Assembly (NCBI GenBank): GCA_965248765.1
Contig: CBDFKF010000004.1
Location: 1,301,260 to 1,365,259 of the forward strand
From: Alphaproteobacteria bacterium
Lineage (GTDB): Bacteria; Pseudomonadota; Alphaproteobacteria; VGEJ01
DNA: 64,000 nucleotides
Direction of reading: 5' to 3'
The first letter of the stretch is position 1. Each line of letters starts with the position of its first letter. This document shows, one piece after another, positions 873 through 51,494 of the stretch. The translations under genes and the position numbers were made by a program. The notes under the pieces were generated by a model. It made no database searches. It worked only from the letters and a program-made list of their open reading frames with translations, and was not told the DNA's origin.

Positions 873-2333
873 CTAGAGATCGAGGTTCCACGGCGCATCA
901 GGGCGGTGGGCCGCGAGCGGCTCGCCGATCATGAAGTGCTCATCAGTGATCACAACTGGCGATTCCCACCCGAGGTATTGCGAGACGCTATCGATCTGGT
1001 CCCAGTAGCGGCTGTTGGGGAACGGCAGCAACTCGCGCTGGAACTCGTCGAGCCACGGCGCGCTCAGTGGCAGGAACACATGGCCGGCCTCGATCTTGGC
1101 GGTCTGGCCATACATGCGGATAGCCTTGTCGCCCTCCGGTTCGATCGGCTCGATCCGCAAGGCGCCCTGTTGAGGCAGTTCCTGAATCAGCTGGGTGCCC
1201 GAGGCCTTGTCCTCGATCAGAACTGCGCCGGCGTCATACTGCTCAGCCATCTCCACCACGAGCTTCCTCAGCGCCGGATACTCGAGCCGTAGCCGGCGCA
1301 CGTCGAGCAGGTAGTGGTCGTGACCACGGCGCAGCCAGGTGGTGCAGACCGAGTAGCTGCTAACATCGGTGCCCTTGGCCGCCGTATCCCAACTCTGGAC
1401 GATCAGATCGCCCTCGTGCGGCTCGGGCAGCGCCTCATAGAACCTGAACCACGACCACTTGATCAGGCCGCCCTCGAGCGGCATGGGATCCTGTTGGTAC
1501 TGTGCCGAGAAGATGGGCGAGCCTAGCGCTCGGCACAGCTGCTCCAACGTCTCGAGCGGCTCTCGCTCGGGGTGCAGCGCCTCACCCTCGCGCCGGCCGA
1601 CGGCATGGCCATGGCCGAGATCGAACCACTGGTCCTCCTCGGCGATGGCCGGCAGGTTGAGATGGTTCCAGCCGCCCTGCTCCAACAGATGGCCCACTGG
1701 ATCGTCAACGTGGAGGTGTTGCATCACCAGGATGATGACGCCGGTCTTCTTGTCGTCGAGGCGGCTCATGGCGGTATTGACGATCCACTCGACCACCGTC
1801 TGGCGGTGCGCCTCGGACAGGGCTTGATCGGCCTTCATGATGTAGTCGAGGATCAGGAAGTTGCCACCCCGCCCGGTCAGGGTGCCGCCCACCGAGGTGG
1901 CCAAGCGGAAGCCGCGTCGCGTCGTCGTCATTTCCTGCTCGGTGTTCTTGGCTCGATCGAGGCGGGTCCGCGCAAAGCTGTCGCGATACCATTGCGTCTC
2001 CATCACGGCCCGGCAGTCGCGGGCGTGTTTGAAGGCGAGGTCGCTCGAGTAGCTGGCGCAGATCACCCGGGCCGCTGGTTGGTGGCCGAGGATAAAGGCG
2101 GGAAACGCCACCGAGCAGCAGATCGACTTCAGGCTGCGGGGCGGCACGGTAATGATGAGCCGGGTGATCTTCCCATCCAGCGCCTGTTGTAGGCGGTGGG
2201 CGATCACCTCGAGGTGCCAGTTGTGGAGATAGCGCTGCCCCGGCGAGACCGTCTGGTAGGTGCGATGGATGCAGGTCGCGAGGTCGCTGCGCGTAGCCAG
2301 CGCGAGGAGATCCGGTTTACTCGTCATGGTCAT
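873..2333 (-). CDS. phage terminase large subunit
   Basis: The 486-aa ORF has an N-terminal ATPase region ('ITVPPRSLKS', Walker-A-like) and a C-terminal nuclease region, typical of GTA/prophage TerL. Its start overlaps the upstream gene as ATGA. Confidence 0.8.
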   Translation of the reverse strand: MTMTSKPDLLALATRSDLATCIHRTYQTVSPGQRYLHNWHLEVIAHRLQQALDGKITRLIITVPPRSLKSICCSVAFPAFILGHQPAARVICASYSSDLAFKHARDCRAVMETQWYRDSFARTRLDRAKNTEQEMTTTRRGFRLATSVGGTLTGRGGNFLILDYIMKADQALSEAHRQTVVEWIVNTAMSRLDDKKTGVIILVMQHLHVDDPVGHLLEQGGWNHLNLPAIAEEDQWFDLGHGHAVGRREGEALHPEREPLETLEQLCRALGSPIFSAQYQQDPMPLEGGLIKWSWFRFYEALPEPHEGDLIVQSWDTAAKGTDVSSYSVCTTWLRRGHDHYLLDVRRLRLEYPALRKLVVEMAEQYDAGAVLIEDKASGTQLIQELPQQGALRIEPIEPEGDKAIRMYGQTAKIEAGHVFLPLSAPWLDEFQRELLPFPNSRYWDQIDSVSQYLGWESPVVITDEHFMIGEPLAAHRPDAPWNLDL

Positions 2334-2785
2334 GGCTCCTCATGCCGGGTCTTCGTCGATGACCGGGCGGTTTGTTCGGGGGCGTGGAGCCCGATGCGGC
2401 CGTTGCCCCCAGTTTCGCCGACGCCCCGCGCGCGCTGGCGAAGCAGCTCGTAGACCTCCTGGTCCTCCTTGCCGAGCGGTTCGCCGGCCACGGGAGCCTC
2501 GTCGTCATCCAGCAACCGCAACATCATGTTGAGGACCGTGCTGGCAGCACGTTGGTCGCCCTGAATCGCCCTCGCCATTAGCGATTTGACAAGGGCGCGC
2601 TGTTTGCTGAGTGGCACGGCGCGCCCGTCCTCGCGAACCAAGACCCGCTCCTGATGCTCCTCACTGAGATCGGTTTTGAGGTTCTTCGTGCCCTTGGGCC
2701 GCCCGCGCGGGTTGCCCGATTGCCCCTTGGCAAAACGGCCACTACGTGGCGGCTTGCCGTAGCCGACCTCGTAATCACTCGGCAT
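2330..2785 (-). CDS. DUF5681-like phage protein (often encoded next to terminase)
   Basis: The internal Met at 'MPSDYEVGYGKPPRSGRFAKGQSGNPRGRPKG' matches the DUF5681 signature. The start overlaps the end of the upstream methylase remnant. Confidence 0.5.
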   Translation of the reverse strand: MPSDYEVGYGKPPRSGRFAKGQSGNPRGRPKGTKNLKTDLSEEHQERVLVREDGRAVPLSKQRALVKSLMARAIQGDQRAASTVLNMMLRLLDDDEAPVAGEPLGKEDQEVYELLRQRARGVGETGGNGRIGLHAPEQTARSSTKTRHEEP

Positions 2786-4389: not shown

Positions 4390-5992
4390 TTATGTAAGAA
4401 CGCGGCGGCGTTGGCGGTCGGACGTAGCGGCCCGAGGCTGATGTGAGCGAGCCGTTCCATCTAGCTCAGTGGTCAACCTGAGTCATCTAAGAGAAGCTCG
4501 GGTCGGGCGGTCTGGCGTTTCGTGGGCGTTGGAGCCAGGAAGTTGCGTTTCCTATGCCCTGATGGCCGCGATCAGCAGCCCGGTGCCGAGGATGTTCATG
4601 ACACGGGTGAGGTTATAGGCGAGTACGTGCAGCGCCATCTCGGTGCTGACGCGTTGTGAGCGTCTTCATCAGGAAGTGGGTTGCGCGCCCATCGGGGCTT
4701 TGATCGTGCCGAAGGGATGCTCGACCGTCTCGCGGCGCTGGCGCATCTTCTCCGGATGCTCGTCGAGCCGCCTCTGAACAGCCTCGAGAACATGCTCGTA
4801 CTCGTGATCCGGCGCTCTCTGCCCGTGGTGCAGCGGTGCTTGATGGCGCAGCTCAGACACGCGTTGGTCCAGTAGCGGCGTAAGGCCAGGCCCTTTTCCT
4901 CAGTCGTGTATCGATACCTCAGCCTTTCGTTGGCCGGGCAGATGTAGATGTCCTTTTGCGCCACATAGCGGCCGGAGGTCTGCGGCTTGGGAAGCGTGAC
5001 CGTGATGGCGGCGTCTTCGCACGCCAGGATCTCCGCACTGTTGAAGTAGCCCCGGTCGGCGACGACATCCAAGGTGTCCGCCCCCAGCGTCGCTTTCGTC
5101 TGCTTGGCCATGCGGGCGAGCTGGGACCGGTCGGTGCCGACGTTGGTCACCTCGTGGGCAACGATCAGATGATGCTTGGTGTCGACGGCGGCTTGCACGT
5201 TGTAGCCGACGACGCCCGACCGCTGGTCGCCATCGAGCGAGCGTCGGGATCGGTTAGAGAGATCTGCTGGTCCGGCCTCTCGCGCATCCGCGCCTCGAGC
5301 CCCTTGAGGCGCTGCATCTCTTGCCTGAGCCTGGCAATCTTCTCGTGCAGACGGACCGTCTTGGTCGTGCGTGCCAGAGACGGCTCTTGCCGGTCGGCGC
5401 TGTCCAGCTGGTGCAGGTAGCGCGACACGCTGATCCAGGCGCCGCGTCATCTTGGCTCGCGTGAAGTTCCTGTCTCGGTTGTTCACTGCCTTGAACTTGC
5501 TGCCATCGATCGCAACGCGGGCTTCGGCAAACAGACCGAGCGTGCGGCACAGAGCGACGAACCGGGCACAGACCTGACGGATGGCGCGACCATTGTCCTT
5601 GTTGCGGAAGTCGGCGATCGTCTTGTGATCGGGAGCCAGGCGGCCGGTTAGCCACATCACTTCCACGTTGCGCCCGGCTTCCCGCTCAAGCCGGCGGCTC
5701 GATTGGACCCGATTGAGATAGCCGTAGATGTACAGCTTCAGCAGAACCGACGGATGATACGCAGGCCGGCCGGTATCCTTCGGCGCGACACGGCTGAAGC
5801 CAAGCTCAGCTAGATCCAGCTCCTCGACAAAGACATCGATCACCCGAACCGCATTGTCCTCGCCAATCCAGTCGTCCAAGCACTCCGGGAACAAAGTGCG
5901 CTGCCCGCGATCGGTCCCTTCAACGAAACGCCCCATACGATCTCCCCGCTCAGACCACCGAAGAATCATATCAGGCAAGCGTTCTTACACAG
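4390..5992 (-). mobile_element. IS1182-family insertion sequence (degenerate)
   Basis: The transposase reading frame is split (see next feature). Imperfect terminal inverted repeats 'TGTAAGAACGC' lie at ~4393-4403 and, reverse-complemented, at ~5979-5989. The ~1.6 kb size fits IS1182. Confidence 0.6.
4558..5978 (-). pseudogene. IS1182-family (IS5-like) transposase, multiply frameshifted
   Basis: The main ORF 4596..5978 has the InsH-like N-terminus. The coiled-coil middle ('LHEKIARLRQEMQRLKGLEARMRERPDQQISLTDPDARSMATSGRA') sits in ORF 5165..5428 in another frame. The conserved C-terminus 'ETVEHPFGTIK' sits in ORF 4669..4860, and 'LAYNLTRVMNILGTGLLIAAIRA' continues to ~4558. Confidence 0.7.
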
Positions 5993-6439
5993 CCAGGGTC
6001 ATAAGCGGACTTGGCGATCTCGCGCGCGCCAGTCCGGTTGTGGGTGATTAGCGGACTCGCCGACGTCTGCTCGTGGGCCAGCATAGGGTGGAATCAAACG
6101 CCCTCACCACCAGGGGCGAATTCGGTGATGATTCCCTGTTATTCCCTGCTCCTTATCGTCGCCGACACGCTGCAAACGCGCCGAGAACAAAGGATTCCCG
6201 GCACAGACCAACGCCGCGCACGGCCACGATGCGTCCAAATTCCCTGTATTTTCCCTGCAAAACAGGGAATGTGGATGGAGAGACGAGTTCGCAATGGACT
6301 GCCCGCACCGCCATGATTTGCGTGACTCTCGCTCAATCCGCCGTGCGCGCTGACCCTGCCGCCACGCAGTCCGCCGGCCGCGTAGCCGCCAGCCCAATCG
6401 GTCGACCAGCACCACCGCGCCACCGTGACCGCTTTCCAA

Positions 6440-6844
6440 CTACGTTGGGTCGGCTGGTACGACCGCTGTCGCTTCGATCTCGACTTTTGCACATGCTTCG
6501 AGCAACCCGGCGACCTCAATCAGGGTCATGGCCGGATAGTTGTGGCCGATCAACTCGACATAGATGCGGCCGAGCTCCTGTCGCCGGGTGAGATACTCCG
6601 CTTTATCAACCACATACCAGGTCATGCGGACGAGGTGAGCGGGGGGCGCGTCGGCCTCGGCCAGCACGGCGATAGTGTTGGCGAGCGCTTGACGCGCCTG
6701 GTCCACAAAGTCGTCGCTTGCGAACGTCTCGGTCGACGGGTCCCAGCCGACCTGGCCGGCAACGAACACGAACCGGCCCTCGGCGAGGATGCCGTGGGCA
6801 TAGCCCCGCGGGCGTGCCCAACCGTCAGGTGCAAGACTTCTCAT
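6440..6844 (-). CDS. RidA/YjgF family reactive-enamine/imine deaminase
   Basis: The 134-aa protein has the typical RidA length and motifs ('FVFVAGQVGWDP...', C-terminal 'IEVEATAV'). Confidence 0.8.
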   Translation of the reverse strand: MRSLAPDGWARPRGYAHGILAEGRFVFVAGQVGWDPSTETFASDDFVDQARQALANTIAVLAEADAPPAHLVRMTWYVVDKAEYLTRRQELGRIYVELIGHNYPAMTLIEVAGLLEACAKVEIEATAVVPADPT

Positions 6845-7278
6845 TTCGCGGTCGCCCGTTCGCTCTCGTCCCGCAGGTACCCGGACATCGCCGCGCGTAG
6901 CTCCGTCGGGATGGGGCGCGATCGCATGTCGGCAAGAGAGACGTAGACAAAGACAAGGATGCCCTCAAGCCGCTTCTCATCGCCGCATGTCGCGCCCACG
7001 GATATGGTGACGGCGCTGCCGCCGATCTCCCTAACGCCAAGCGTAAACCGCAAGAGATCGCCCAGTCGGCACGGTTGGAGGAATTCAGCTTCGACGCGTA
7101 CCGCCGGGACCCCGCATCTGAGCTCCCCGTGCAGTTGCCTGAAGCTGCAATCCAATCCCCGGTCGAACCACTCCTCGATCACTTCGTTGAACATCTCGAA
7201 ATAGCGGGGATAGAAGATCAGGCCGGCCTGATCGACATGCGAGAAGCGCACGCGGATATCGACGACGAAAACGGCCAT
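6841..7278 (-). CDS. hotdog-fold acyl-CoA thioesterase (4HBT/YbgC-like)
   Basis: The credible protein begins at internal Met 'MAVFVVDIRVRFSHVDQAGLIFYPRYFEMF...'. The upstream part of the listed ORF is an alternative frame of the ligase gene. Confidence 0.7.
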   Translation of the reverse strand: MAVFVVDIRVRFSHVDQAGLIFYPRYFEMFNEVIEEWFDRGLDCSFRQLHGELRCGVPAVRVEAEFLQPCRLGDLLRFTLGVREIGGSAVTISVGATCGDEKRLEGILVFVYVSLADMRSRPIPTELRAAMSGYLRDESERATAK

Positions 7279-7288
7279 GCGGCGCGCT

Positions 7289-8823
7289 TCAGGTTTGCTC
7301 AGCGTGACCGGGGGCAGCCCTGGCGAGCTCGACCTCGCGCTGGCGTAAGACGAATCGCTGGATCTTGCCGGTGCCCGATTTAGGCAGCGCATCGAGGAAC
7401 TCGACAGCGCGCGGATATTTGTAGGGTGCGATGCGCTGCTTGACGAAGTCTTGCAGTTCAGCCGCGAGGTCCGCATTCGCAGCGCGGTCCTGAGCCGCGA
7501 TGACGAACGCTTTGACGATGTGTCCTCGCTCGGTGTCCGGAGCCGCCACCACGGCGCATTCGGCGACGCCCGGGTGCTCGAGAAGTACTGCTTCAACTTC
7601 CGGGCCAGCGATGTTGTAGCCGGCCGAGACGATCATGTCGTCAGCGCGCGCTTGGAACCAGAAGTACCCGTCCTCGTCCATCCTGTAGGCATCGCCGGTG
7701 ACATTCCAGCCGTCAAAGACGTAGCCTTTTTGGCGCTCATCCGCGAGGTAGCGGCAGCCCGTGGGCCCGCGAACGGCGAGTCGCCCCACCGAGCCGGTAG
7801 GTAGCGGTCGACCGTCGTCATCGAGAACGCGTGCCTTGTAGCCCGGCACAACTCGGCCGGTCGCCCCCGGCCGGATCTCCGACTCGGGCGAGGAGATGAA
7901 GATGTGCAGAATCTCTGTCGCCCCGATGCCGTCAATGATCCTGATGCCGGTCGCGTCCTCCCACGCCTGGAACACTGGTACAGGCAGGGTCTCGCCGGCG
8001 GAGACGCATTTGGTGAGGCTCGACAACTCCGCCGAGCTTGCCTGCGAGAGCATGGCCCGGTAGGCGAGCGGCGTTGAGAAGCAGACCGTCGCCTTGAACC
8101 GGGCGATCGCGTCCGCCAGCAGCTCGGGGCTCGCCCGCAATATCGAGCGCGGAAAACAATCGCAGATCGCCATCACGTCCCGATGGAAATGTAGGGTCCC
8201 CTTGGGCACCCCAGTCGTGCCGGAGGTGAAAGCGATCAGCACCACATCGTCGGAAGCTGTATCGCAGGCGGTGAACGTGCCGTCCTTGGTCTCCATCAAG
8301 CGTTCCAGCTCGGCCTCGGGCCGCCCGAAGGGGACGAGGCGGCTGAGCACCGGCGCGCTCGTCTGCGCCGATGCGAGCTCCTCACACAGGTCCTCATCGC
8401 ACAGCGCCAGTCCGACCTGTGCCTTGTCGATGATCGCGGCGAGCTCGCGCGCGCGCAGAAGCGGCATAACGGCGACAACCACGCCGCCGGCCTTAGCGAC
8501 GGCCAGCCAGCATGCCGCCATCATCGGATTGTTCGCCGATCGGAGCAGAACTCGGTTGCCGGGGACGAGACCCAGATCGTCGACCAGAACGGCGGCGATA
8601 CGGTTCGTATGGTCGAGGAGATCGGCGTAGGTCCAGCTCACGCCGGGTGCCCGCAGACATGGCTTGTCGCCGAGACCCCGCTCAACGGTCCGATCGAGGA
8701 GCTCGATCGCGCAATTGAGCCGGTCTGGATACTGAAGCTCCGGTCGATCGAACAGGAACTCAGGCCACTCGGCCTGGGGCGGGAGGTTGTCGTGTGCGAA
8801 GGTGTCGCGATGGGCACTGGGCG

Positions 8824-8827
<4 letters not shown>
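7289..8827 (-). CDS. aryl-CoA ligase (AMP-binding; 2-aminobenzoate/benzoate-CoA ligase-like)
   Basis: The 512-aa protein has the AMP-binding motif '[10 protein letters not shown]' and a C-terminal 'GKIQR'. It lies next to the ACMR-like gene. Confidence 0.8.
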
Positions 8828-10010
<1,183 letters not shown>

Positions 10011-10014
<4 letters not shown>

Positions 10015-10766
10015 TCGCCCTCGAACACCGGTTCGCGCTTCTCGACAAATGCGCGAAAAGCACGCTCGAAGTCCTTAGTTTGCATGCAGATGGCCTGGGC
10101 TTCCGCCTCGGCGTCAATCGCCGCGTCCAAGGCCATGTCCCACTCCCGGTCGAGCATGGTCTTGGTCATCATGTGGGCGAAGGTGGGCCCGCGGGCCAGT
10201 TGCCGGGCCAGGCTCATTGCCTCGTCAAGAGCCGTGCCCGCCGAGCACAGCCGATTATAGAAGCCCCAGCGCTCGGCCTCCTCTGCCTCCATCATGCGCC
10301 CGGTAAACAACAGCTCGGCGGCACGACCGAAACCGACGATGCGCGGCAACATAGCGCAGGCCCCCATGTCACAGCCGGCGAGGCCGATCCGCACGAACAG
10401 AAATCCGACCCGACTTCCCGCGGCGCCCACCCGGGTATCGCAGGCCATGGCGATAGCCGCTCCGGCGCCGACGCAGACGCCCTCGACAGCGGCGATGATC
10501 GGCTGCGGACACCCGCGCATAGCCTTGACGAGAGCGCCTGTCATGCGCGTGAAATCGAGCAACCCCGGCGTATCGCGCCCGACCAACGGGCCGATGATTT
10601 CGTGCACATCGCCGCCTGAGCAGAAGTTCCCACCGGCACCAGTGACGACCACCGTGCGCACGTCGCTCGCGCCACGAAGTGCTTGGAAACAGTCGCGCAG
10701 CTCGGCATATGAATCGAAGGTGAGCGGGTTCTTCCGCTCCGGTCGATTGAGAGTGACCGTGCCCAC
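10011..10766 (-). CDS. enoyl-CoA hydratase/isomerase (crotonase), N-terminus compromised
   Basis: It has the crotonase motifs '[11 protein letters not shown]' and 'GGDVHE'. The listed ORF starts at a GTG only 5 residues before 'TLNRPE'. An in-frame ATG at 10814 followed by a TGA at 10784-10782 lies upstream (see findings). Confidence 0.7.
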
Positions 10767-10819
10767 GCCATCGCTCAGCGATCATCGGAAGTGCGTCGGT
10801 CTGTAGTCCCGCATGCTTG

Positions 10820-11332
10820 TCATATCATCTCCGCCTCGCCGTGCTGCTCGATCGCCCGCCGTGTCTTGTCCAGCGAGGCGATCAAGTCCGCGACGTCCTC
10901 CTCCGCGAGCGGTCCCAAAAGCTCGCCGATCCACGCCTCGTGCGCCTCGGCCATGGTCGTGAAGGCCGCCCGTCCCGCATCGGTCAGTGCCACGATCGAG
11001 GCACGTCGATCGTGATCGGGCGACCAGCGATGAACCAGGCCGCTCTCGACCAGCCTCGCAATCAGACCGGTGAGATTGCCGTTCGACACCATCAACCGTG
11101 CCGACAGCTCGCCCAGCGTCAAGCCGTCCGGAGCGCGGTCGAGAGCGGCCAGCGCGTCGAACCGCGGCAGCGTCGTGGCGAAGCGCTCCCGCAGCCGCGT
11201 GCGCACCTCGCGCTCAACGAGCGTCGAGCACATCAACAGGCGTAACCACAGCCGTAATCGCTGTTTGTACGCGTCTCGCGCGCCGTCATCGGCGGTCGCC
11301 GCTCGCGCTCCAGTGAGGGATTCGTTCAACAT
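10820..11332 (-). CDS. MarR family transcriptional regulator
   Basis: The winged-helix MarR core is 'LTLGELSARLMVSNGNLTGLIARLVESGLV'. Internal Met 'MLNESL' is preceded by AGGAGG, so it is the likely true start. Confidence 0.8.
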   Translation of the reverse strand: MLNESLTGARAATADDGARDAYKQRLRLWLRLLMCSTLVEREVRTRLRERFATTLPRFDALAALDRAPDGLTLGELSARLMVSNGNLTGLIARLVESGLVHRWSPDHDRRASIVALTDAGRAAFTTMAEAHEAWIGELLGPLAEEDVADLIASLDKTRRAIEQHGEAEMI

Positions 11333-11337
11333 TCCTC

Positions 11338-13588
11338 CTAGATATCGATGGCCATCTCGGCCGCCCGGCGCAGGTTCCGTTCGTACTGCTCGCGGCCGTG
11401 CAGGTAGGGCGCCGGCCATTCGATGCCCTCATATCTCTGCTGTGCCGCCGCGTGCAGCGTCCAATAAGGATCCGCAAGGTGGGGCCGCGCCAGACAGAAA
11501 AGATCGGCGCGGCCGGCAGCGATAATGCTGTTGACATGGTCGACCTCGAAGATATTGCCGACCGCGAGCGTGGGGATGCCCGCCTCGTTGCGGATTCGGT
11601 CGCTTAGCGGTGTCTGGAACATGCGGCCATAAACGGGCTTGGCCGCAATGCTGGTTTGGCCCGCCGAGACATCGATGATGTCGGCGCCCGCGGCCTTGAA
11701 GGCGCGGGCGATGTCCACGGCCTCAGCGGCGTCGACGCCGCCGGTGACCCAGTCGGTTGCCGAGATGCGAACCGACATCGGCTTCTCGGCTGGCCATGCG
11801 GACCGCATCGCAGCAAACACTTCGAGCGGGTAGCGGAGCCGCTCGGCAAGGTTGCCGCCATAGCGATCACGGCGAAGGTTAGTGAGCGGCGTGATGAAGG
11901 CCGACAGTAGATAGCCGTGCGCGCAGTGCAGCTCGATCATGTCAAAGCCACAGCGCTCGGCCATCTCGGTCGCCGTGACGAAGGCGGCGAGGACAACCTC
12001 CATATCGGCGCGGGTCATCTCCCGCGGCACTCGATGCGCCGGCGACCACTGCACCGCCGAGGGGCCCGTCACCTGCCAGTTGCCGGCTTCGAGCGGCTCG
12101 TCCATCCCCTCCCAGCCGAGCTTGGTCGAGCCTTTGGGGCCTGAGTGCCCGAGCTGAAGGCCGATCTTGGCCGGTGCTTGCTTGTGCACGAAGTCGACGA
12201 TCCGGCGCCATCCGGCGACGTGGGCCTCGTCGTACATGCCGGCACAGCCCGGCGTAATTCGGCCGTCGGCGGTGACGCACGTCATTTCGGTGAAAACCAG
12301 CCCGGCACCGCCCTGGGCGCGGGCACCGAGATGCACGAGGTGGAGATCGCCGGGCACGCCATCGGCTGCGCTGTACATCGCCATGGGCGAGACCACGACA
12401 CGATTGTCGAGCTCCATCGACCGGAGCGAGAAGAGCAGAAACATCGGCGGGACAGGCGATTGGCGAGCGCGGCCTGAGGCCTGCCCGCCGAGCCACGCCT
12501 CGACGCCTTCGAGCCACCCCTGATCGCGTAAGCGCAGGTTCTCGTGGCTCACGCGTTGGCTGCGCGTCAGCAGCGAGTAGGCAAACTGAGTTGGCTCGAA
12601 GGTAGAATAGCGGCCGACGCTCTCGAACCACTCGGTGCTGTTGCGCGCAGCATTTTGTAGCCGCAGCACCTCAACGCCCCGCTCGTCCTCGTAAGCGGCG
12701 AACGCTTCGGCGAGCTGGCCATGGTCGGCGAGCTTGTTGGCAAGCGCAATTGCATCCTCGAGCGCAAGCTTGGTGCCTGATCCGATCGAGAAATGGGCGG
12801 TATGGGCGGCATCGCCGATCAGCACGGTGTTGCCGTGAAACCATCGCTCGTTGCTGATGCGCTGAAAGTTGAGCCATGGATCGGCCAGGTGCGGCGCGTT
12901 GCTCATGAGCTCGTGGCCGCACAGGTGTTCCGCGAACAAGTCTTCGCAGAGCCGGATGCCATCCGCTGCGGCCATGCGGTCCACGCCGAGACCGCGCCAC
13001 ACGACCTCGGGGCATTCGACGATGAAGGTGCTCGTGTCCAGATCGTAGCGATAGGCGTGGGCTTTGATCCAGCCGTATGCGGTCTCTTTGAAGACGAACG
13101 TGAAGGCGTCAAAGACACGGCGGGTCCCCAGCCAAACGAACTTGTTGCCGCGGACGTCGATATCCGGTTTGAAGTGTCGCGCACCGGCTTGGCGAACGCG
13201 GCTGTTCACGCCATCGGCGGCCACTACCAGATCGGCGTCCGCGAATGCCCTGAAGTCCTCGACTTCGTGCTCGAACTCGAGCGAAGCGCCTAATGCCCGT
13301 GCGCGCTCTTGAAGGATGTGGAGAAGGCGCTGGCGGCCGATGCCGGAGAAGCCATGGCCGCCCGAGCTAACGACGGTGTCCTTGAAATGGACGTCGATGA
13401 CATCCCAATGAGCGAAGCTGTCGGCGATCTCTTCCGCCGTGTCGGCGTCGTTCGCGCGCAGATTGTCCATGGTCTGATCCGATAACACGACGCCCCAGCA
13501 CGACAATGTCGTGCTGGGGCGCGCGACGCTTCATCGAGATCGCGAAGTAGAGTCCCGCGGGACCGCCGCCGATGCAGACGATTCGCAT
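11338..13588 (-). pseudogene. 2-aminobenzoyl-CoA monooxygenase/reductase-like flavoprotein (salicylate-hydroxylase-type FAD monooxygenase fused to an Old Yellow Enzyme domain), 5' frameshift
   Basis: The N-terminal FAD-binding segment '[34 protein letters not shown]' (ORF 13367..13735, ATG at 13588) is in a different frame from the rest of the gene (ORF 11338..13506, listed with a TTG start). The C-terminal half is OYE-like ('[25 protein letters not shown]'). Confidence 0.6.
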
Positions 13589-13676
13589 CTGTTGGCTCCG
13601 TACAGGTATTTTATACTTGAAATAAATATCTACAAGGGGCGAGGCTCCGTCACATTTTCTCTGTGGTGTTGGCGTC
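13589..13676 (-). promoter_or_regulatory. AT-rich putative promoter/operator upstream of the ACMR-like operon
   Basis: 'CTACAAGGGGCGAGG...TATTTATTTCAAGTATAAAATACCTGTACGGAGCC' is the only AT-rich patch within 10 kb. It lies between the amidase stop and the ACMR ATG, and a MarR is encoded in the operon. Confidence 0.3.
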
Positions 13677-15341: not shown

Positions 15342-16739
15342 CTAGATCGACAGTTTGTTGTGGGCGTCGAGAGCCGCTACCTTGTAGCACTCGGCGAGCG
15401 TCGGATAGTTAAAGACGGCTTCGAGCAGGTAGTCGAGCCCCCCGCCCAATGCAATCACCGTTTGACCGATATGTATGAGCTCGGTCGCGCCGGTGCCGAC
15501 TGCATGCACGGCGAGCAACCGCCTGTCCTCGCGATGCACCAGCATCTTCAGGAAACCGCTGTCGTCTCCGAGGATCTGACCGCGCGCAATCTCTCGGTAC
15601 CGGGCAACACCAGTCTCATAGGGGACTTTTTCCTGAGTCAACGTCTCCTCAGTAGGGCCCACCATCGAGACCTCTGGGACGGCATAGACACCGATCGGAA
15701 AATGCTCGGCCATGTGATTGGCCTCCACGCCGAATGCGTGACAAGCGGCGAGCCGTCCCTGTTCCGAAGACGTGGCGGCCAGGCTTGGGTAGCCGACGAC
15801 ATCACCGCCGGCGAAGATGTGCGGCACCTCTGTGCGAAACGCTGCATCAACCTCCATTCGGCCGCGTTGATCGGCGCTCAAACCAGCCGCCGCGAGGTTC
15901 AGGTCATCGGTCGCGCCGACCCGCCCAATGGCGAACAGCGCCATCTCCGCGACGATTCGTTTTCCGGATTCAAGATGAACCAGGGCGCGGCGGGGGCCTT
16001 CCTTTGTCACTTCGATCCGCGCGACACGTTCGCCCAGTCGAAACGTCACATTGTTGCCGCGCATCTGATGAACAAGCTCGTCGACGATCTCGGTATCGAG
16101 GAATTCGAGTGGGCGATCCCTACCGTCCACCGTCGTGACATCGACGCCGAGCGCGCCGAAGATGGACGCATACTCGATGCCGATGATGCCGCAGCCGATC
16201 ACCGCCAGCGTGCGCGGCAGCTCGCGCATGTGTGGAATCTCGTCGCTGGTGACGACACTTACCCCGTCGATCGGGACATCATCCGGCCGTGCTGCGCTGG
16301 CGCCGACACCGACAAAGATATTCGCACCCGTAATCTCGACGTGACCGTCCACGCGGACGGCGTGGGGTCCGACAAACGAGGCGGTACCGTTGTAGATCGA
16401 GATGCGGTTGCGCTCTAGCTGGTCCTGGATGACTGCCCCTTCACGCTGCGCGATCTCCGCGACCCGATCGAAGAGCTGCTCGGCCGTCGGCCGATTCGCC
16501 TTGCGCATGGATCGACCGGCAGTGAACGGGTTGGCCCCGGCCGTCACGTTCATCACGGCCTCGCGGAACGTCTTGCTCGGCACCGTGCCCGTGTGGATAC
16601 ACACCCCGCCGAGCGTGTCTTTCTCTACGACGGCAACGCGACGGCCAAACTTGGCCGCCTGGACCGCCGCGCGCTGACTGGCGGGCCCGCTACCGATGCA
16701 AATCAGATCGTAGGTGTAGCTCTCAGCCACGACGTTCAA
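15342..16739 (-). CDS. sthA: soluble pyridine nucleotide transhydrogenase (class I pyridine nucleotide-disulfide oxidoreductase)
   Basis: 'YDLICIGSGPASQRAAVQAAKFGRRVAVVEKD..LGGVCIHTGTVPSK', 'GDVVGYPSLAATSSEQGR' and C-terminal 'FNYPTLAECYKVAAL' closely follow SthA/UdhA, recalled from memory. Confidence 0.7.
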   Translation of the reverse strand: MNVVAESYTYDLICIGSGPASQRAAVQAAKFGRRVAVVEKDTLGGVCIHTGTVPSKTFREAVMNVTAGANPFTAGRSMRKANRPTAEQLFDRVAEIAQREGAVIQDQLERNRISIYNGTASFVGPHAVRVDGHVEITGANIFVGVGASAARPDDVPIDGVSVVTSDEIPHMRELPRTLAVIGCGIIGIEYASIFGALGVDVTTVDGRDRPLEFLDTEIVDELVHQMRGNNVTFRLGERVARIEVTKEGPRRALVHLESGKRIVAEMALFAIGRVGATDDLNLAAAGLSADQRGRMEVDAAFRTEVPHIFAGGDVVGYPSLAATSSEQGRLAACHAFGVEANHMAEHFPIGVYAVPEVSMVGPTEETLTQEKVPYETGVARYREIARGQILGDDSGFLKMLVHREDRRLLAVHAVGTGATELIHIGQTVIALGGGLDYLLEAVFNYPTLAECYKVAALDAHNKLSI

Positions 16740-16789
16740 GGGTGCTCAGATCAACGTTGGGCCTTGGCGTCGGCCCCGCGAGACACCAG

Positions 16790-17077
16790 CTAACTCGCTG
16801 CCTCGTTGAAATACGTCCGGGCCACGGCATCTGCGTGGCTCAACATCTCGTCGAGGCCACCCTGTGCCTCCAGCTCGGCGAGAAATTTTTTGTGGGCGTC
16901 GACGGATGACCATTTCTCCAGAAGAATGACTTCATCGGGTTTCGTCGTATTCACATAAACATCCATGCCGGCGAAGCCATCGACATCGTTGTCAGGCGGC
17001 ACCGGCTGTATCAGCTCGCTAAGCGCCTTCCCGTGTCCGGGCTTGCCTGAGATGCGCACTATTAGCATGACGCTCAT
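16790..17077 (-). CDS. ABM-domain (antibiotic biosynthesis monooxygenase-like) small protein
   Basis: It is ~95 aa and 'MSVMLIVRISGKPGHG...ILLEKWSSVDAHKKF' fits the ferredoxin-like ABM fold pattern. Confidence 0.5.
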   Translation of the reverse strand: MSVMLIVRISGKPGHGKALSELIQPVPPDNDVDGFAGMDVYVNTTKPDEVILLEKWSSVDAHKKFLAELEAQGGLDEMLSHADAVARTYFNEAAS

Positions 17078-26433: not shown

Positions 26434-27720
26434 ATGCGGGTCAAGGAAACGACAAAAAACGCCGGCAAGCGGAAGAACGGGATTAGTCGTCGTCGGCTCA
26501 TGGGCACGACGGCAGCGGTGGCGGCCGCCGGAGCCATCAGCGGATTCCCGAACATCGTGCGCGCCGCCGACGATCTACGCACCGTTGGTCTCGGCGTCAG
26601 CATCATCAACGAGATCCAGGGCCAAGCGTCGGAGGATCTCGGATTCGGTGTGCGCGGGCAGGCGCTGGGTTACGGCGCCATGATCGGCAAGATGCTCAAT
26701 CAGAACGACCAGTACGACATCGCCGAGGGCTACTACAACGACATGGACATCATGTGGCCCGCCGGCGTTTGGCAGCCGATCGATACGCAGCGGATCACGG
26801 AATGGGACAAGATCACGAACCTTTCGAAGACGGGCCGACTCACGCCGGAGTCCAACCCCGGCCAGGGCGATGCGCCATTCCGCCAAATGTGGCTCGACGA
26901 CAACGGCAATCGCGTAGCGGGACCGTCCCGCTACGTCACGATGGTTCCGGGGTGGCACAATGCCGATTCCATTGGCTACAACCCGGACGAGACCGGTCGC
27001 AAGATCGAAAGCTGGGCGGAGCTGTTCAGCGACGATTTCAGAGGCCAGGTGGCGCTTCTGAACGTGCCTCAGATCGGCGTCATGGATGCCGCCTTGGGCG
27101 TCGAGGCGTTGGGCCTGCTCACATTCGGCGACAAGGGCAACATGACCACGGAAGAGATCGATTTCCTGATGGATTTCCTGATCGAGAAGAAGAAGGCCGG
27201 GCATTTCCGGGCCTTCTGGGAGACCTTTGGCCAGTCGGTCAACCTTATGGTCAGTGGCGAGGTCGCACTGGAAAGCATGTGGTCACCGGCGGTGACCGCC
27301 ATCAAGGCCGAGGGCGTGCGGTGCGTCTATGCCTTCCCCAAGGAGGGCATGCGCGGCTGGCACGGCGGTTGCGCCATCTCCGCCGAGGTCACCGGCAAAG
27401 CGCTCGATCAAGCCTATGAGTACATCAACTGGTGGCTGAGCGGTTGGCCCGGTGCGTTCGTGGCCCGTCAGGGTTATTACATGTCGGTGCCCGAGAACGT
27501 GCGGAAGCATGTCGAGCCGGACGAGTGGGACTATTGGTACGACGGGAAAGCCGCCGCCAGGGACCTGCCCGATCCGTTCGGCACCATCATCGTGCCTGAA
27601 GGCGAGATCAGGGACGGCGGATCCTACTGGGACCGGTTCGGCAACATCGCCGTTTGGAACTCGGTGATGGACGAGAACGACTATTTGGTGAAGCGCTGGA
27701 CCGAGTTCCTGACCGCCTGA
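26434..27720 (+). CDS. ABC transporter periplasmic substrate-binding protein (PotD/PotF-like) with Tat signal
   Basis: The twin-arginine signal is 'SRRRLMGTTAAVAAAGA'. It has the SBP fold and is followed by two permease genes. Confidence 0.8.
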   Translation: MRVKETTKNAGKRKNGISRRRLMGTTAAVAAAGAISGFPNIVRAADDLRTVGLGVSIINEIQGQASEDLGFGVRGQALGYGAMIGKMLNQNDQYDIAEGYYNDMDIMWPAGVWQPIDTQRITEWDKITNLSKTGRLTPESNPGQGDAPFRQMWLDDNGNRVAGPSRYVTMVPGWHNADSIGYNPDETGRKIESWAELFSDDFRGQVALLNVPQIGVMDAALGVEALGLLTFGDKGNMTTEEIDFLMDFLIEKKKAGHFRAFWETFGQSVNLMVSGEVALESMWSPAVTAIKAEGVRCVYAFPKEGMRGWHGGCAISAEVTGKALDQAYEYINWWLSGWPGAFVARQGYYMSVPENVRKHVEPDEWDYWYDGKAAARDLPDPFGTIIVPEGEIRDGGSYWDRFGNIAVWNSVMDENDYLVKRWTEFLTA

Positions 27721-33290: not shown

Positions 33291-35603
33291 TTAGGCGATC
33301 GGCCACTCGCCGTTCCCAGATGGCCGCTCGCCAAAATCGAAGACCGGTAGGTCCTTGCGATTGCGCTGCATGGTCCTGCGTAGCTCTTGCGTTGCTCTTT
33401 GATCGATGTCAAAGCGGCGGCCAACAAGCACTACGCCATACTCGTTCCTTGCCGTTTCCGACGTCATCAGGTTGCGCGCAACGTCGTTGCGAACGAGCAC
33501 CGAGTCGCGCTCCAGCGCATCGCCCCAACCGCCACCGCCAGCAGTGCGGAAGACGATGCGATCGCCGCGCACCACCGTGACGTTGTCGACCTTGGAGGGC
33601 AGCGGCTCGCGGCTGCCGTCCTCGCGCACCAGCCATTTCTCTGAGCACTGGCCCGGCTTACCCCCGAGAATGCCCCAGGGTTGGGTGAGATGCCGGTCGT
33701 CGTGGATGGAGATCTCGCCCGCCTCGAGCAGCAAGTAGACCTTTTCGATGCCATTACCGCCCCGGTGTTTGCCGGCGCCGCCGGTGTCGGCGACGCTGCC
33801 ATAGCCCTCGATCACCATCGGGTAATAGCTCTCGAGGTACTCGGACGGGATGTTCTCGAACAGCGGCCACCAGGAGTGACCGTCCAGGCCATCGCCAACT
33901 GGGCGGCCGGGGATGCCACCATAGAGAATCTCCATCAGCTGGAAGCTCCGCCCGTCGCGATCGACCCCCGAGTACAGGAAGTGCGGGCTGGAGCCGTAGC
34001 CGGCCGCGGTGGCCATCTCCGGCGCGTGGCGGCTGAGGGCACCGCCCAGCACGTCGAACTGCCGCGAGAGCGCGTGGGTGCGCCCGCCTAGAGCTGCCGG
34101 GAACTTCGGCCGCACGAGCGATCCCTCAGGCATGGTGACGTGGATGAGGTCGTAGAAGCCGTCGTTGAAGAGGATCTGGGGGTCGAACACCATGATCATG
34201 TAGACCCCAATGAACATCTTAAACATGCCCTCGTGGAGGTAGAAGTTGATGGGCCCTGGCGACTGCGCTGCCGTACCGGTCCAGTCGAAATAGGCGTGCT
34301 CCCCCTCGCGCCAGACCGTGAGTTTCATCTTAAACGGCCCGTTGCCGCGGCCGTCGTCATCGACGTAGTCCTCGAACGATTGCGGCTCCTCCGGCAGGTT
34401 CTGGACGATCAGCTGGCGCATGGCGCGGTTGGTACGCTCGAGCAGGGCCTCGCAGGCCTGCATGTAGACCTCTTTGCCAAAGCGCTCGCAGATCTCGACC
34501 ACCCGCCGCTCGCCAGCGCGGCTTCCAGCGATGATCGCCATGAGGTCGCTATAGTTCATCTCCGGCGTGCGGGTGTTGTTCATGATCAAGTTGACCGCCG
34601 AACTGTTGAGCTCGCCCTTCTCGTAAATCTTAATCGGCGGGATCTTCAACCCCTCGCCGAAGATCGAGGTGGCGGCGGTCGGCATGCTGCCCGGCACCGG
34701 TCCACCGACGTCCATGACGTGGCCGAACATGGAGCTGAATCCGACGAGACCCCCTTCGTAGAAGATCGGTATCAACACCATCCAGTCATTGATGTGGCTG
34801 ACCGCCCCGCCGCATTTGTAGGGATCGCTCTGCAGGATCACGTCGCCCGGGTGGAGTTCGAATTGCTCGGCTGCCAGCATCTCCGAGACGTACGAGCCGA
34901 ACTGGCCAACGATCATGCGGCCCTTGGGATCGGTGATCATCGGGAACTCGTCATGCTGCTCGCGGATGACCGGCGACATCGCGGAGCGAAACAACACCGC
35001 GTCCATCTCGTGCCGGGCGTTCCGTAAAGCGTTCTCGACGAGGTCGAGCGTAATCGGGTCCAAACGCCCGCCCCTGCGCGGGCCGGGCTCGGCCGCGACC
35101 GGCGCGGCCTCAGGTCCACCGTTGGTGGGCAACGTCCGCGCTCCGGCCGGTGTGGGCGGCACATCGGTGGGCGCACGCAGCGTGGGAGGATCGCCGAACA
35201 GCTCCGCGCACTTCTTGAGCGCATCCTCAGTTGCGCGCTGCAACGCAGCGCCCTCGTCGCCGTGAATGCGCGCTGATCCGAACTGCGATTTCGTGACACC
35301 GTCGACCTCAAGCTTGCAGAGGACGGTGACCATGCGGCTGTCAGCGCGCCGGTTAACCACTTCGCACGACCAGCCACTGCCGAATTTGGCATTGAGCAGC
35401 GCGGCGACGCCGTTGCTTCCCTCGGTGTCCATTGCCTCGATGCTGGCTGAGGCCAGATCCTGCTCGGTCGGCGGGCGACGCGTGACGCCGAGCAAACCGA
35501 AGTCACGGTTCTGGGCATTGAGGATCTTGTCGAACTGCTGCTTGTTCGCCTTCAGCAGATCGTCGAGCGAGACGCTGCTGGTAGGGGGGGGCACATCCGA
35601 CAT
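33291..35603 (-). CDS. hyuB: hydantoinase B/oxoprolinase-family subunit (HyuB, copy 1) with ~175-aa N-terminal extra domain plus Pro-rich linker
   Basis: The HyuB core begins at 'LDPITLDLVENALRNARHEMDAVLFRSAMSPVIREQHDEFPMI', equal to the start of copy 2. Residues 1-~175 are additional: a globular ~125-aa part plus 'DPPTLRAPTDVPPTPAGARTLPTNGGPEAAPVAAEPGP'. The SD 'AAGAGGAG' precedes the ATG at 35603. Confidence 0.85.
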   Translation of the reverse strand: MSDVPPPTSSVSLDDLLKANKQQFDKILNAQNRDFGLLGVTRRPPTEQDLASASIEAMDTEGSNGVAALLNAKFGSGWSCEVVNRRADSRMVTVLCKLEVDGVTKSQFGSARIHGDEGAALQRATEDALKKCAELFGDPPTLRAPTDVPPTPAGARTLPTNGGPEAAPVAAEPGPRRGGRLDPITLDLVENALRNARHEMDAVLFRSAMSPVIREQHDEFPMITDPKGRMIVGQFGSYVSEMLAAEQFELHPGDVILQSDPYKCGGAVSHINDWMVLIPIFYEGGLVGFSSMFGHVMDVGGPVPGSMPTAATSIFGEGLKIPPIKIYEKGELNSSAVNLIMNNTRTPEMNYSDLMAIIAGSRAGERRVVEICERFGKEVYMQACEALLERTNRAMRQLIVQNLPEEPQSFEDYVDDDGRGNGPFKMKLTVWREGEHAYFDWTGTAAQSPGPINFYLHEGMFKMFIGVYMIMVFDPQILFNDGFYDLIHVTMPEGSLVRPKFPAALGGRTHALSRQFDVLGGALSRHAPEMATAAGYGSSPHFLYSGVDRDGRSFQLMEILYGGIPGRPVGDGLDGHSWWPLFENIPSEYLESYYPMVIEGYGSVADTGGAGKHRGGNGIEKVYLLLEAGEISIHDDRHLTQPWGILGGKPGQCSEKWLVREDGSREPLPSKVDNVTVVRGDRIVFRTAGGGGWGDALERDSVLVRNDVARNLMTSETARNEYGVVLVGRRFDIDQRATQELRRTMQRNRKDLPVFDFGERPSGNGEWPIA

Positions 35604-35615
35604 GGCTAACTCCTC

Positions 35616-37691
35616 TTACGTTCCCGAGGCGACCGAGCGCGGATCGTCCTGGGGGTAGATCAAAATGTTCAAGTACTCGTCGACGTCCCCCACGTGATCG
35701 GGATGGATAACCGTAGTCGTATCATCCTGCAAGATGACCGCCGGGCCCGCCACGCGATTGCCTGCGCCCAGCCGTTTGCGATCATAGATGTTGGCGGTGA
35801 GAAAGCTGCCGTCGAAGTAGACGCGATGCTGATCGACCACCGCCGCTGAGCCATCCTCGGCGTTCTTCTCAGAGCGCGGGATATTGACTTTCTCCACCTG
35901 TCCCGTCCCTACCGCCCGTAGATTGACGAGTTCGACCGGCGCATTTAGCCGGAAACCATAGAGCCGTTCATGCGCGGAGCCGAAGCGACTCTCGACATCA
36001 CCGAGGCCGCCGTTGGTGAGCGCATCCGGGTTGATGTCCAGCGAGAACTCATAACCCTGACGGAAGTACCGCACGTCGACCTGGTATTGCAATTCTTGAC
36101 GGGATTCGTCGACGCCTTCCTCGCGAAGCCACGCCTTCGCCTCGCTGCCGAGCTCCGTCAGCAGCTCGCTCACCTGGCCTGGATTGGTGTCGGCAATGTT
36201 CCGAATGAACGTGCGCGCGAACTCGTTTTTGACATCGGAGTAAAGAAACCCGAGTGCTGACAGGACCCCCGGGGTTGTCGGCACGATGACCGGGAAACAC
36301 CCCGCCAAGCGAGCAACGGCGTTACCGTGCATGGGTCCCGCCCCGCCAAAAGCCACCAAGGCAAAATCACGCGGGTCCAACCCTTTTTGCACGCTGACCA
36401 GGCGTAGCGCGCCCAACATATTCTCGTTGACGATATCGAGGATGCCTTGGGCGGCCTGATAGACGTCAAGGCCGAGCGCGTGTCCGATCTTTGCAACGGC
36501 GGTCTCCGCTGCGCCTGCGTCCAAGGCCATCTCGCCGCCCAGCAAGCTCGGCGGTAGGTGCCCGAGAACGACGTTGGCATCGGTCACCGTGGGCAGCTCG
36601 CCGCCGCGGCCATAGCACGCGGGCCCCGGCACCGCCCCCGCGCTCTCGGGCCCCACTCGTAGCGCACCGGTCATCGGCACATGCGCTATGGAGCCACCGC
36701 CGGCGCCCACGCTGTGCACCTCGACCGACGGGACCTTCACCGGATAGTAGCCGAGCGAGGTCTGACGGGAGATCGTGGGCTTGCCATCTTGTATTAGCGA
36801 GACATCGGTCGAGGTGCCGCCCATGTCAAAGCCGAGGGCGTTCGGCTGGCCCGCCAGCGAGGAGATGAAGGCCGCGCCGGATACCCCGCCCGCCGGACCC
36901 GAAAGCATCGTATGGACGGGAAATTCGCTCGCGCGCTGCACGCTCATCAGCCCGCCGTCGGAGCGTACGATGTTCACATGGGGCGAGAATTGGATCTCGT
37001 TCAGCCTTTGCTCGAACCCCTCCAGATACCGACGTACGCTGGGTCGTACGTAGGCGTTCATCACGGCGACCAACGTGCGTTCGTATTCCCGGAACTCCGG
37101 CAGGATCTCGGACGAAAGAGAGACCGGCAGCTCGGCATCCTGCTCGCGAATCAAGGCCTTCACGCGCTCCTCATGTTGGGAGTCGGCGTAGGAGTGGAGG
37201 AGTGAGACAGTAATCGACTCGACCCCCAATTCGAGCAGTTCGCGGATCGCCGAGCGTGCCTGTCCCTCGTCCAACGGTTTGATGACGTCGCCGCGCGCTG
37301 TTATTCGCTCGGAAACGCCGCGTGTGGCTTCGAGGTCTGCCATCGGCTCGGGCTTGATCATCGTGATCCAACCCGCCAGCGGACCCGGCGTTTGTGAGCG
37401 CGCCAGGTGCAGGACCTGCTCGAAGTTCTCCGTCACCAGCAAGCCGACCCTCGCACCTTTACCCTCGAGGACGATGTTGGTCGAGACCGTGGTTCCGTGT
37501 AGCAGCGTCCGAATATCCGGCGGCGCAACGCCCGATTCGGCGACGATCTTTTTGATGCCCGTGAGAATGCCCACAGACTGATCTTCCGGCGTAGACGGCG
37601 TTTTCAGCAGGTGAATGTCACCGGTGGCTTCGTTGAACAACAAGAGATCCGTGAAAGTGCCACCGACGTCGATGCCGAGGCGGCTGCTCAT
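35616..37691 (-). CDS. hyuA: hydantoinase A / N-methylhydantoinase A-family subunit (HyuA, copy 1)
   Basis: It starts 'MSSRLGIDVGGTFTDLLL' and is 691 aa, the typical HyuA architecture. Confidence 0.85.
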   Translation of the reverse strand: MSSRLGIDVGGTFTDLLLFNEATGDIHLLKTPSTPEDQSVGILTGIKKIVAESGVAPPDIRTLLHGTTVSTNIVLEGKGARVGLLVTENFEQVLHLARSQTPGPLAGWITMIKPEPMADLEATRGVSERITARGDVIKPLDEGQARSAIRELLELGVESITVSLLHSYADSQHEERVKALIREQDAELPVSLSSEILPEFREYERTLVAVMNAYVRPSVRRYLEGFEQRLNEIQFSPHVNIVRSDGGLMSVQRASEFPVHTMLSGPAGGVSGAAFISSLAGQPNALGFDMGGTSTDVSLIQDGKPTISRQTSLGYYPVKVPSVEVHSVGAGGGSIAHVPMTGALRVGPESAGAVPGPACYGRGGELPTVTDANVVLGHLPPSLLGGEMALDAGAAETAVAKIGHALGLDVYQAAQGILDIVNENMLGALRLVSVQKGLDPRDFALVAFGGAGPMHGNAVARLAGCFPVIVPTTPGVLSALGFLYSDVKNEFARTFIRNIADTNPGQVSELLTELGSEAKAWLREEGVDESRQELQYQVDVRYFRQGYEFSLDINPDALTNGGLGDVESRFGSAHERLYGFRLNAPVELVNLRAVGTGQVEKVNIPRSEKNAEDGSAAVVDQHRVYFDGSFLTANIYDRKRLGAGNRVAGPAVILQDDTTTVIHPDHVGDVDEYLNILIYPQDDPRSVASGT

Positions 37692-37820
37692 GACCCGGTT
37701 TGTGCCGCCAAGCACCGAATGCGCGGGGGAAAGCCGCCACGCCCAGCCAAAACGCTTGTCGCGCTCTCGGGCTTTGCTATATTGCCGTTCACCGCGTCGC
37801 CCAGTATAACTGCATCGGTC

Positions 37821-38348
37821 ATGGCACAAGAATCTGTAGGCCTGCGCCCACCAAGATTCCTGATAGTCGTTGTCGGGATCATTATACTATTGATCTTTCT
37901 TTACTTTTATCGTCCATTCGAAACTTATTTTACCGAAAGTATCCAGGACATTGACTCGTCCAACATTGTTTTTTGGTTTGCTTCGCTCATTGGAGTACTC
38001 GGCTATGTCGTCTCCCATTGGCGGTCTTTTCGTCACAACATTTTCCGCAGCGTCACAGACCTCGACATCGAAACTCTCGTCTTCGACACGCTGCAGATCG
38101 CCATTTTGATCGCGGTCATCTTTTGCGCAGGTGCGATCCTTCAAGAAATCGAGATGCTGGCTGAGCACCTCATCGAACGGGGTACCATCATCGGGCCATT
38201 TTTTGGCGGCAGATTGCTGTCAATCATACTGCTGTTCCTCCTAGCGGTCGCCTTCTACCTCCTACACCGCATGGTGCGCGCCTTCCGCATCGGGTGGCGT
38301 CCCGACAGGGTACCCCCGCGGGCTTCCTCCGCTAGCGGCCGCTCTTGA
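37821..38348 (+). CDS. small membrane protein P2 (paralog of 24262..24726)
   Basis: The 175-aa protein has 'LIFLYFYRPFETYF' and 'SNIVFWFASLIGVLGYVVSHWRSFR'. It is divergent from hyuA copy 1. Confidence 0.5.
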   Translation: MAQESVGLRPPRFLIVVVGIIILLIFLYFYRPFETYFTESIQDIDSSNIVFWFASLIGVLGYVVSHWRSFRHNIFRSVTDLDIETLVFDTLQIAILIAVIFCAGAILQEIEMLAEHLIERGTIIGPFFGGRLLSIILLFLLAVAFYLLHRMVRAFRIGWRPDRVPPRASSASGRS

Positions 38349-49175: not shown

Positions 49176-49419
49176 GGCGTCCTCCCTCTCTCTCAGCGCT
49201 TGCCGAGCCCTCGTAACCAGCCAGGGATTTCCAAAACCGCCAACCCCCCGGCCCACACGGCATTGCTCACCAACGTGCGGGCGCCCCAGGCCTTGCCAGC
49301 CGGCACGTTGACTCAAGCGGGCAGCGGCTCGATAGTCCAAGCACGTGCTTAGCCCGTTCACGGGTGGTTTCCAGAGGCCGAAACGGCCCTGAGCGCGTGA
49401 TTTGGAGGGAGAATCGGCA

Positions 49420-51477: not shown

Positions 51478-51494
51478 TGTAACGGAGAGCGGAT

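Follow-up and report, generated by a model that had tools for sequence, protein, structure and literature searches.

A 32-nt deletion within a perfect inverted repeat of a probable salicylyl-CoA 5-hydroxylase-family pseudogene

A gene of the bifunctional salicylyl-coenzyme A (CoA) 5-hydroxylase/oxidoreductase family was found to be split across two reading frames in an uncultured alphaproteobacterium (assembly GCA_965248765.1, contig CBDFKF010000004.1). The gene lies in a stretch of 64,000 nucleotides (nt), positions 1,301,260 to 1,365,259 of the contig, which is called the window here. When compared with its close relatives, the window is short of 32 nt at the point where the frame changes, and this point falls within a perfect inverted repeat. 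The gene is probably a pseudogene. The deletion is likely genuine and appears to have arisen by a hairpin-templated switch at a quasipalindrome, after which it was kept without purifying selection on the operon. We infer both the steps of the template switch and the presence of the lesion in cells rather than in the assembly alone.

The split gene and its missing segment

Three metagenome contigs, L081, L083, and L082, served as relatives. These are the contigs behind the proteins P0001, P0121, and P0123, respectively, and they are 98-99% identical to the window across approximately 17 kb. The alignments are nearly free of insertions and deletions (indels), with 0-1 indels over 7,821 nt (L081) and 10,098 nt (L082). 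The features of the gene and its junction are as follows.

11338-13588, minus strand: split ACMR-family hydroxylase/oxidoreductase gene, NF006101
13496..13588, minus strand: frame-A 5' fragment with the GxGxxG dinucleotide-binding motif for flavin adenine dinucleotide (FAD), matching NF006101 positions 1-34
11338..13497, minus strand: frame-B body, beginning at the WGVV Trp codon and ending at the stop, with the remaining part of the FAD monooxygenase and, at the C-terminus, an Old-Yellow-Enzyme (OYE)-type flavin mononucleotide (FMN) reductase
13596..13599, minus strand: Shine-Dalgarno-like GGAG, 7 nt 5' of the ATG at 13588, also found in L081-L083
13496..13500, minus strand: deletion junction, located by the alignments with L081, L083, and L082
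13491..13521, no strand: perfect 15/15 inverted repeat with a 1-nt spacer, CGCCCCAGCACGACA-A/T-TGTCGTGCTGGGGCG, located by sequence search

A preliminary description, made from the sequence of the window, had proposed a frameshifted member of this family. The profile search agrees with it. The family is NCBIfam NF006101, bifunctional salicylyl-CoA 5-hydroxylase/oxidoreductase, also known as anthraniloyl-CoA monooxygenase/reductase, and the match is split across two frames. JGI names this family anthraniloyl-CoA monooxygenase. An N-terminus of 30-31 residues with the FAD motif is encoded in frame A, starting from the ATG at 13588-13586 on the minus strand, and is identical to the protein N-terminus of P0001 and P0123. 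The remaining body of 719 residues is encoded in the +1 frame, frame B, and is 96% identical to P0001. Beyond the junction, frame A is out of frame and reaches a stop after 73 codons (open reading frame (ORF) 13367-13588; stop 13367-13369). The frame-B ORF, taken from the TTG at 13506, encodes 722 aa (11338-13506). It scores 1181.9 bits over profile positions 42-763 of 768, where the equivalog cut-off is 1078 bits. Positions 35-41 have no match in either frame. The Pfam domains PF01494, FAD_binding_3 (E = 4.7e-11), and PF00724, Oxidored_FMN/OYE (E = 4.3e-59), are both present, and the nearest solved structure for the N-terminal domain is that of VioD, 3c4a (E = 3.4e-49). The gene therefore has the profile score and both domains of the family, and it does not have a single uninterrupted frame of approximately 760 aa. 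A search for named proteins gave none that was near-identical, and the nearest named relatives are alphaproteobacterial metagenome-assembled genomes, such as Stellaceae, at approximately 60% identity. An Rfam search of the window gave no match.

Nucleotide alignment revealed that the window is short of exactly 32 nt (3 x 10 + 2) against all three relatives. The absent block is GTTTGATCGCAATAGCCCCGACGACACGTTCG in L081 and L083, where the context reads GTCGT[GTTTGATCGCAATAGCCCCGACGACACGTTCG]GCTGGGG. In L082 the block is GCTTGAGCGCAATAGCCCCGACGACACGTTCG and begins GCTTGAGCGC. Ten whole codons and 2 nt are lost from the reading frame. Both a 3n+2 deletion and the absence of some 10-12 residues of the type ERNxPYDTFGW had been anticipated, and the peptide lost, (L/F)(E/D)RNSPDDTFG in the relatives, amounts to about 11 residues. 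The exact breakpoint is ambiguous over 1-3 nt of microhomology. The homology at the junction is G if the ancestor was of the L081/L083 type, or GCT if it was of the L082 type. The CTGG direct repeats that had been proposed to flank the junction occur in neither haplotype of the relatives.

The lost segment is kept in those homologues that were read, namely seven intact homologues and the N-terminal fragment P0123. The VioD structures 3c4a and 8gqr retain an equivalent segment, IVEKNxxxxLGWGVV. In addition, 116 of the 120 listed homologues are 746-779 aa long, and the other four are 663-678 aa and cover 92-94% of the query. P0001 has only 751 aa because its OYE domain has lost 27 nt in another deletion, and its N-terminus is unaffected. 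Orthologs that naturally do without the segment, which would have accounted for the missing residues in a functional gene, were thus rejected on both the sequences read and the lengths listed.

In the beta-alpha-beta dinucleotide-binding fold, the acidic residue that ends strand beta-2 binds the ribose of the ADP moiety of FAD. The lost codons 31-41 probably correspond to the end of the Rossmann strand beta-2, with its conserved acidic residue, and to the loop toward the GWGVV strand. A product with its frame restored would still be without the beta-2 acidic residue, because that residue lies in the deleted block.

It is possible to imagine that a functional product is made from the gene as it stands. 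Either programmed +1 frameshifting could occur at GTG-CTG-GGG, or a truncated protein with OYE activity could start at TTG 13506 or ATG 13470. In favor of this, 719 codons are open in the downstream frame, the PF00724 domain is intact, and gene callers did report a protein of 710 aa that starts at MDNL (P0124). From that start, the protein and the window ORF are identical, and the 2.94-Mb NCBI/ENA contig that carries P0124 is probably the same assembly as the window. Both P0123 and P0124 belong to the 90% cluster of P0001. However, the frameshifted version would lack 11 conserved residues that VioD and the homologues read have kept. The internal starts give products without GxGxxG and lie inside an upstream frame that is translated. 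There is no conserved slippery or stimulatory motif, the junction being unique to the strain, and the ligase of the pathway is damaged too. A functional product is thus extremely improbable, and the lesion predicts that there would be no hydroxylase activity.

The gene should be annotated as a pseudogene of the ACMR/salicylyl-CoA hydroxylase family. Neither the 722-aa call nor the 710-aa call is credible, and the TTG start had already been doubted on the ground that its product lacks GxGxxG. Exact-protein look-ups of four possible gene calls returned no independent case of the junction. JGI metagenomes were also scanned, and neither the junction nor the left arm of the ancestor gave a match (0 each). 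This null is uninformative because the lineage is absent from that collection.

The inverted repeat and the origin of the deletion

The frame switch was expected to lie within a palindrome, and the junction at 13496..13500 is indeed inside the inverted repeat at 13491-13521. The repeat had been described as a perfect 13/13 palindrome. It is perfect, but its arms are 15/15, with CGCCCCAGCACGACA at 13491-13505 and TGTCGTGCTGGGGCG at 13507-13521. No other perfect inverted repeat with a short spacer in the window is as long. In window-sized random sequences from a second-order Markov model (100 trials), 0.02 repeats with arms of at least 13 nt and 0.00 with arms of at least 15 nt are expected per 64 kb. 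As single-stranded DNA (ssDNA), the derived 47-nt segment forms a perfect hairpin (-22.7 kcal/mol, z = -8). The hairpin was also considered as an intrinsic terminator and rejected, since there is no U-tract and no terminator-like call. Two other perfect inverted repeats with a 1-nt spacer are present in the window, both with 11-nt arms: CGTAGCGGGAC-C-GTCCCGCTACG at 26913-26935 and GGGGCGCCGGA-A-TCCGGCGCCCC at 56198-56220. Approximately 0.3 repeats with arms of at least 11 nt are expected per window by chance.

The ancestral state can be read from L081-L083. Here the 15-nt left arm CGCCCCAGCACGACA is followed by T, by TGTCGTG(CT), by approximately 32 unpaired nt, and then by CTGGGGCG. TGTCGTG(CT) is complementary to the inner 7-9 nt of the left arm and CTGGGGCG is complementary to its outer 8 nt. 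The block removed is exactly the stretch that is unpaired with the left arm. On either ancestor, 20,000 candidate deletions (approximately 10,000 of them distinct) were enumerated by combining 200 start positions with every length from 1 to 100 nt. Only the observed product yields perfect arms of 15 nt, and the next best products yield 11-12. As ssDNA, the ancestor already forms the outer stem (-20.7 to -22.6 kcal/mol, z about -3). An imperfect ancestral repeat is therefore present, and the product is what copying of the other arm would dictate.

A template switch could have produced the deletion as follows. The gene-sense nascent 3' end, ...TGTCGTG, would fold back on the newly made left arm, with GTCGTG priming on CACGAC, to form a stem of 6-8 bp with a 3-nt loop. 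The polymerase would then copy the outer arm and so produce CTGGGGCG. This end could re-anneal to the identical CTGGGGCG octamer 32 nt downstream on the proper template. The 32 nt between would be skipped, and a perfect 15/15 palindrome would result. A switch across the fork would give the same product. The mutation may then have been kept since the operon was no longer under purifying selection in the lineage.

The deletion could instead be real and have arisen by slipped-strand mispairing or microhomology-mediated end joining, with the palindrome as a coincidental by-product. The 1-3 nt of microhomology at the junction would fit this. By BLAST alignment, the ancestor also contains an imperfect direct repeat of 22 nt, GCCCCAGCACGACATTGTCGTG, against 19 nt, GCCCCGACGACACGTTCGG, with 16 matches and 3 gaps, and the deletion takes out the spacer and the second copy. 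Deletions at other sites in the operon belong to the direct-repeat type: one of 108 nt in the window, flanked by 7-nt repeats, and one of 27 nt in L081/L083. However, the exact, ungapped junction homology is just G or GCT, even though the gapped imperfect repeat (16/22 positions) spans the deleted interval, and the 3' ends of the repeat copies pair poorly. Slippage also gives no reason why the sole product with a 15/15 palindrome should have occurred among approximately 10,000 distinct deletions. We consider this origin rather unlikely, and hairpin-templated synthesis accounts for the 32-nt deletion better than microhomology at the junction does.

Several points weigh against this account of a genuine template-switch deletion in a decaying operon. 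The deletion of 32 nt is long relative to the classical quasipalindrome corrections of 1-10 nt. The imperfect direct repeat, GCCCCAGCACGACATTGTCGTG against GCCCC-G-ACGACACGTTCG-G, has an end-to-end spacing equal to the deletion, and slipped mispairing could yield the same product. With an immediate ancestor that had GTGCTGGAG here, homology at the junction would amount to 5 nt (GCTGG). The deletion is known from assembled sequence and not from reads, and the sole other public record of the allele is P0124. Finally, the measures of selection on the operon given below are based on small counts.

Decay of the surrounding operon

The genes downstream of the hydroxylase gene form an operon with it (6440..11329). 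Their order is the same in L081-L083.

10820-11329, minus strand: MarR regulator
10011-10766, minus strand: enoyl-CoA hydratase, PRK08258
8824-10014, minus strand: acyl-CoA dehydrogenase
7289..8827, minus strand: benzoate-CoA-ligase-family gene
6841-about 7290, minus strand: 4HBT thioesterase
6440-6844, minus strand: RidA

The CoA ligase of the window has an in-frame deletion of 108 nt, which removes 36 aa, CADDIFIGSPPLAFTFGLGGLLAFPMRNGASTALLERA, including the FGLGG region. The deletion is flanked by 7-nt direct repeats, GCGGGCG, of which the surviving copy is at 8132-8138. The 36-aa segment is kept in L081/L083 and in five outgroup ligases. Against TIGR02262 the window ligase scores 310.6, which is under the cut-off of 375.25, and the match is in two stretches. 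The ligase ORF looks intact but the enzyme is probably inactive.

Each of the related strains has lesions of its own. In L081/L083, the hydroxylase gene has the 27-nt in-frame OYE deletion (AERCGFDMI, just before HCAHGYL), which is at 11661 and corresponds to window positions 11934-11960. The ligase gene of L081/L083 has a 1-nt frameshift (L081 15281) and an insertion of an IS3-family insertion sequence (IS) (L081 16051-17330). In L082, the hydroxylase gene is split by an IS1595-family element (11056-11991), the enoyl-CoA hydratase gene has a 4-nt insertion (14403), and the dehydrogenase/ligase region contains IS3-family elements (15388-17008).

The ratio of nonsynonymous to synonymous change (pN/pS, Nei-Gojobori) is 0.5-0.8 for the hydroxylase gene and 1.2-2.1 for the acyl-CoA dehydrogenase gene. 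For the neighboring amidase and Pyr_redox (pyridine-nucleotide-disulphide oxidoreductase) genes, it is 0.13-0.17. Pooled Fisher tests of the raised pN/pS gave p = 0.006 and 0.002, with small counts. The ligase ratio against L081/L083 was disregarded because the alignment runs through the IS and the deletion, which inflates the value. In addition, the window has a Leu codon, TTA (13488, minus strand), where the motif WGVVFSD has Phe and all three relatives have TTC. A change from Phe to Leu in this otherwise invariant motif is consistent with drift after inactivation.

The preliminary description had left the choice between a palindrome- or repeat-mediated deletion and an artefact. If the lesion were an artefact of assembly, consensus, or amplification at a hairpin-prone sequence, for example by in-vitro template switching or mis-polishing, the gene would be intact in vivo. 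The allele does occur in one public genome record only, and it is known from assembled sequence. The ancestor is prone to structure and in-vitro polymerases are capable of the same template switch. However, the low indel counts given above indicate that the assembly is not indel-prone, and a 32-nt consensus deletion is atypical as a sequencing error. The 108-nt ligase deletion is a second, independent inactivating deletion in the same operon, and the raised pN/pS of the operon and the replaced Phe also speak against an artefact. A real deletion is favored because the operon carries independent lesions in every related strain. An artefact is very unlikely. The operon is probably decaying independently in each of these closely related strains, and the hydroxylase lesion is probably genuine.

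It is unlikely, though conceivable, that loss of the pathway was positively selected rather than the result of neutral decay, for example through a toxic or costly CoA-thioester intermediate or through a shift of niche. If so, several knock-outs, the 32-nt deletion among them, would have converged in at least three strains that co-exist, are 98-99% identical, and belong to an IS-rich lineage. The deletion would then also be a rare case, recorded in nature from wild bacteria, of quasipalindrome template switching over a long tract.

Because the CoA ligase is damaged as well as the hydroxylase, this genome should not be assigned an anthranilate/salicylate-CoA pathway. The independent lesions in the strains would represent ongoing decay of the operon in a lineage with active IS elements. 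For the study of mutation, the deletion is a clean case from nature, since nearly identical strains allow the ancestral state to be recovered. Such cases can help to calibrate how often template switching, as against slippage, is the source of indels in bacterial populations.

The junction between the last two genes of the operon also varies. In the window, the thioesterase and RidA are two genes with an ATGA stop/start overlap (6841-6845), as in the outgroups L040 and L070. L081 and L082 are short of 5 nt (AATGA) there, which places the thioesterase and RidA in one frame. L083 encodes a single 4HBT-RidA product of 273 aa and was not aligned at the overlap.

Mobile elements and other genes were found elsewhere in the window. 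Synteny with L081-L083 stops at window position 6022, which adjoins an IS1182-family transposase ORF (4596-6022; 304.8 bits). The C-terminal third of this ORF looks out of frame. The relatives go on into a TPR gene and a Transposase_mut element. A DDE_3 (IS630-like) element occurs in L081 (1183-2265) but not in the window. A prophage or a prophage remnant at the start of the window is suggested by an ORF at 873-2339 (minus strand) with the domain of a phage terminase large subunit (TIGR01630, E = 1.3e-17). Two pairs of genes for caprolactamase/acetophenone-carboxylase-like subunits (hydantoinase A/B family) are present at 33291-37886 (minus strand) and 49393-53411 (plus strand), and all are well under the equivalog cut-offs.

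Comparison with known systems

The split gene can be compared with ACMR, the 2-aminobenzoyl-CoA monooxygenase/reductase of Azoarcus evansii, and with SdgC, the salicylyl-CoA 5-hydroxylase of Streptomyces sp. WA46 (NF006101/PRK08255). These have the same two-domain architecture. Their operon context is similar, with an aryl-CoA ligase, an enoyl-CoA hydratase, an acyl-CoA dehydrogenase, a thioesterase, and RidA. The presence of RidA beside the hydroxylase presumably hints at an enamine or imine intermediate, as in the anthranilate route. The gene in the window differs in being frameshifted and in lacking 11 conserved residues, and is therefore a pseudogene rather than a functional member.

Slipped-mispairing deletions in bacterial genes resemble the lesion in that they are short coding deletions with a frameshift. 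The 108-nt ligase deletion in the window is of this kind. The hydroxylase junction differs, as it has 1-3 nt of direct homology but inverted complementarity of 7-9 nt and 8 nt.

In quasipalindrome mutations, imperfect inverted repeats are made perfect by template switching of the nascent strand (PMC7202029). The E. coli lacZ reporters QP5 and QP6 of the Lovett laboratory lose an extra 4 bp from one arm by this route (PMC7202029). The deletion in the window is like those described by the Ripley 1982 model, at the E. coli thyA hotspot, and in QP5/QP6, in that an imperfect repeat is perfected and extra nucleotides in one arm are removed. The microhomology at the junction is likewise minimal and the outcome is set by the complementary arm. 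QP5 and QP6 remove 4 nt and natural hotspots typically remove a few, whereas 32 nt are absent from the window. The reporters are also experimentally selected mutants, whereas the window has a natural allele, fixed or assembled, from an uncultured bacterium. The mutation is best classed as a long-tract quasipalindrome template-switch deletion, a further example of a type that is already known.

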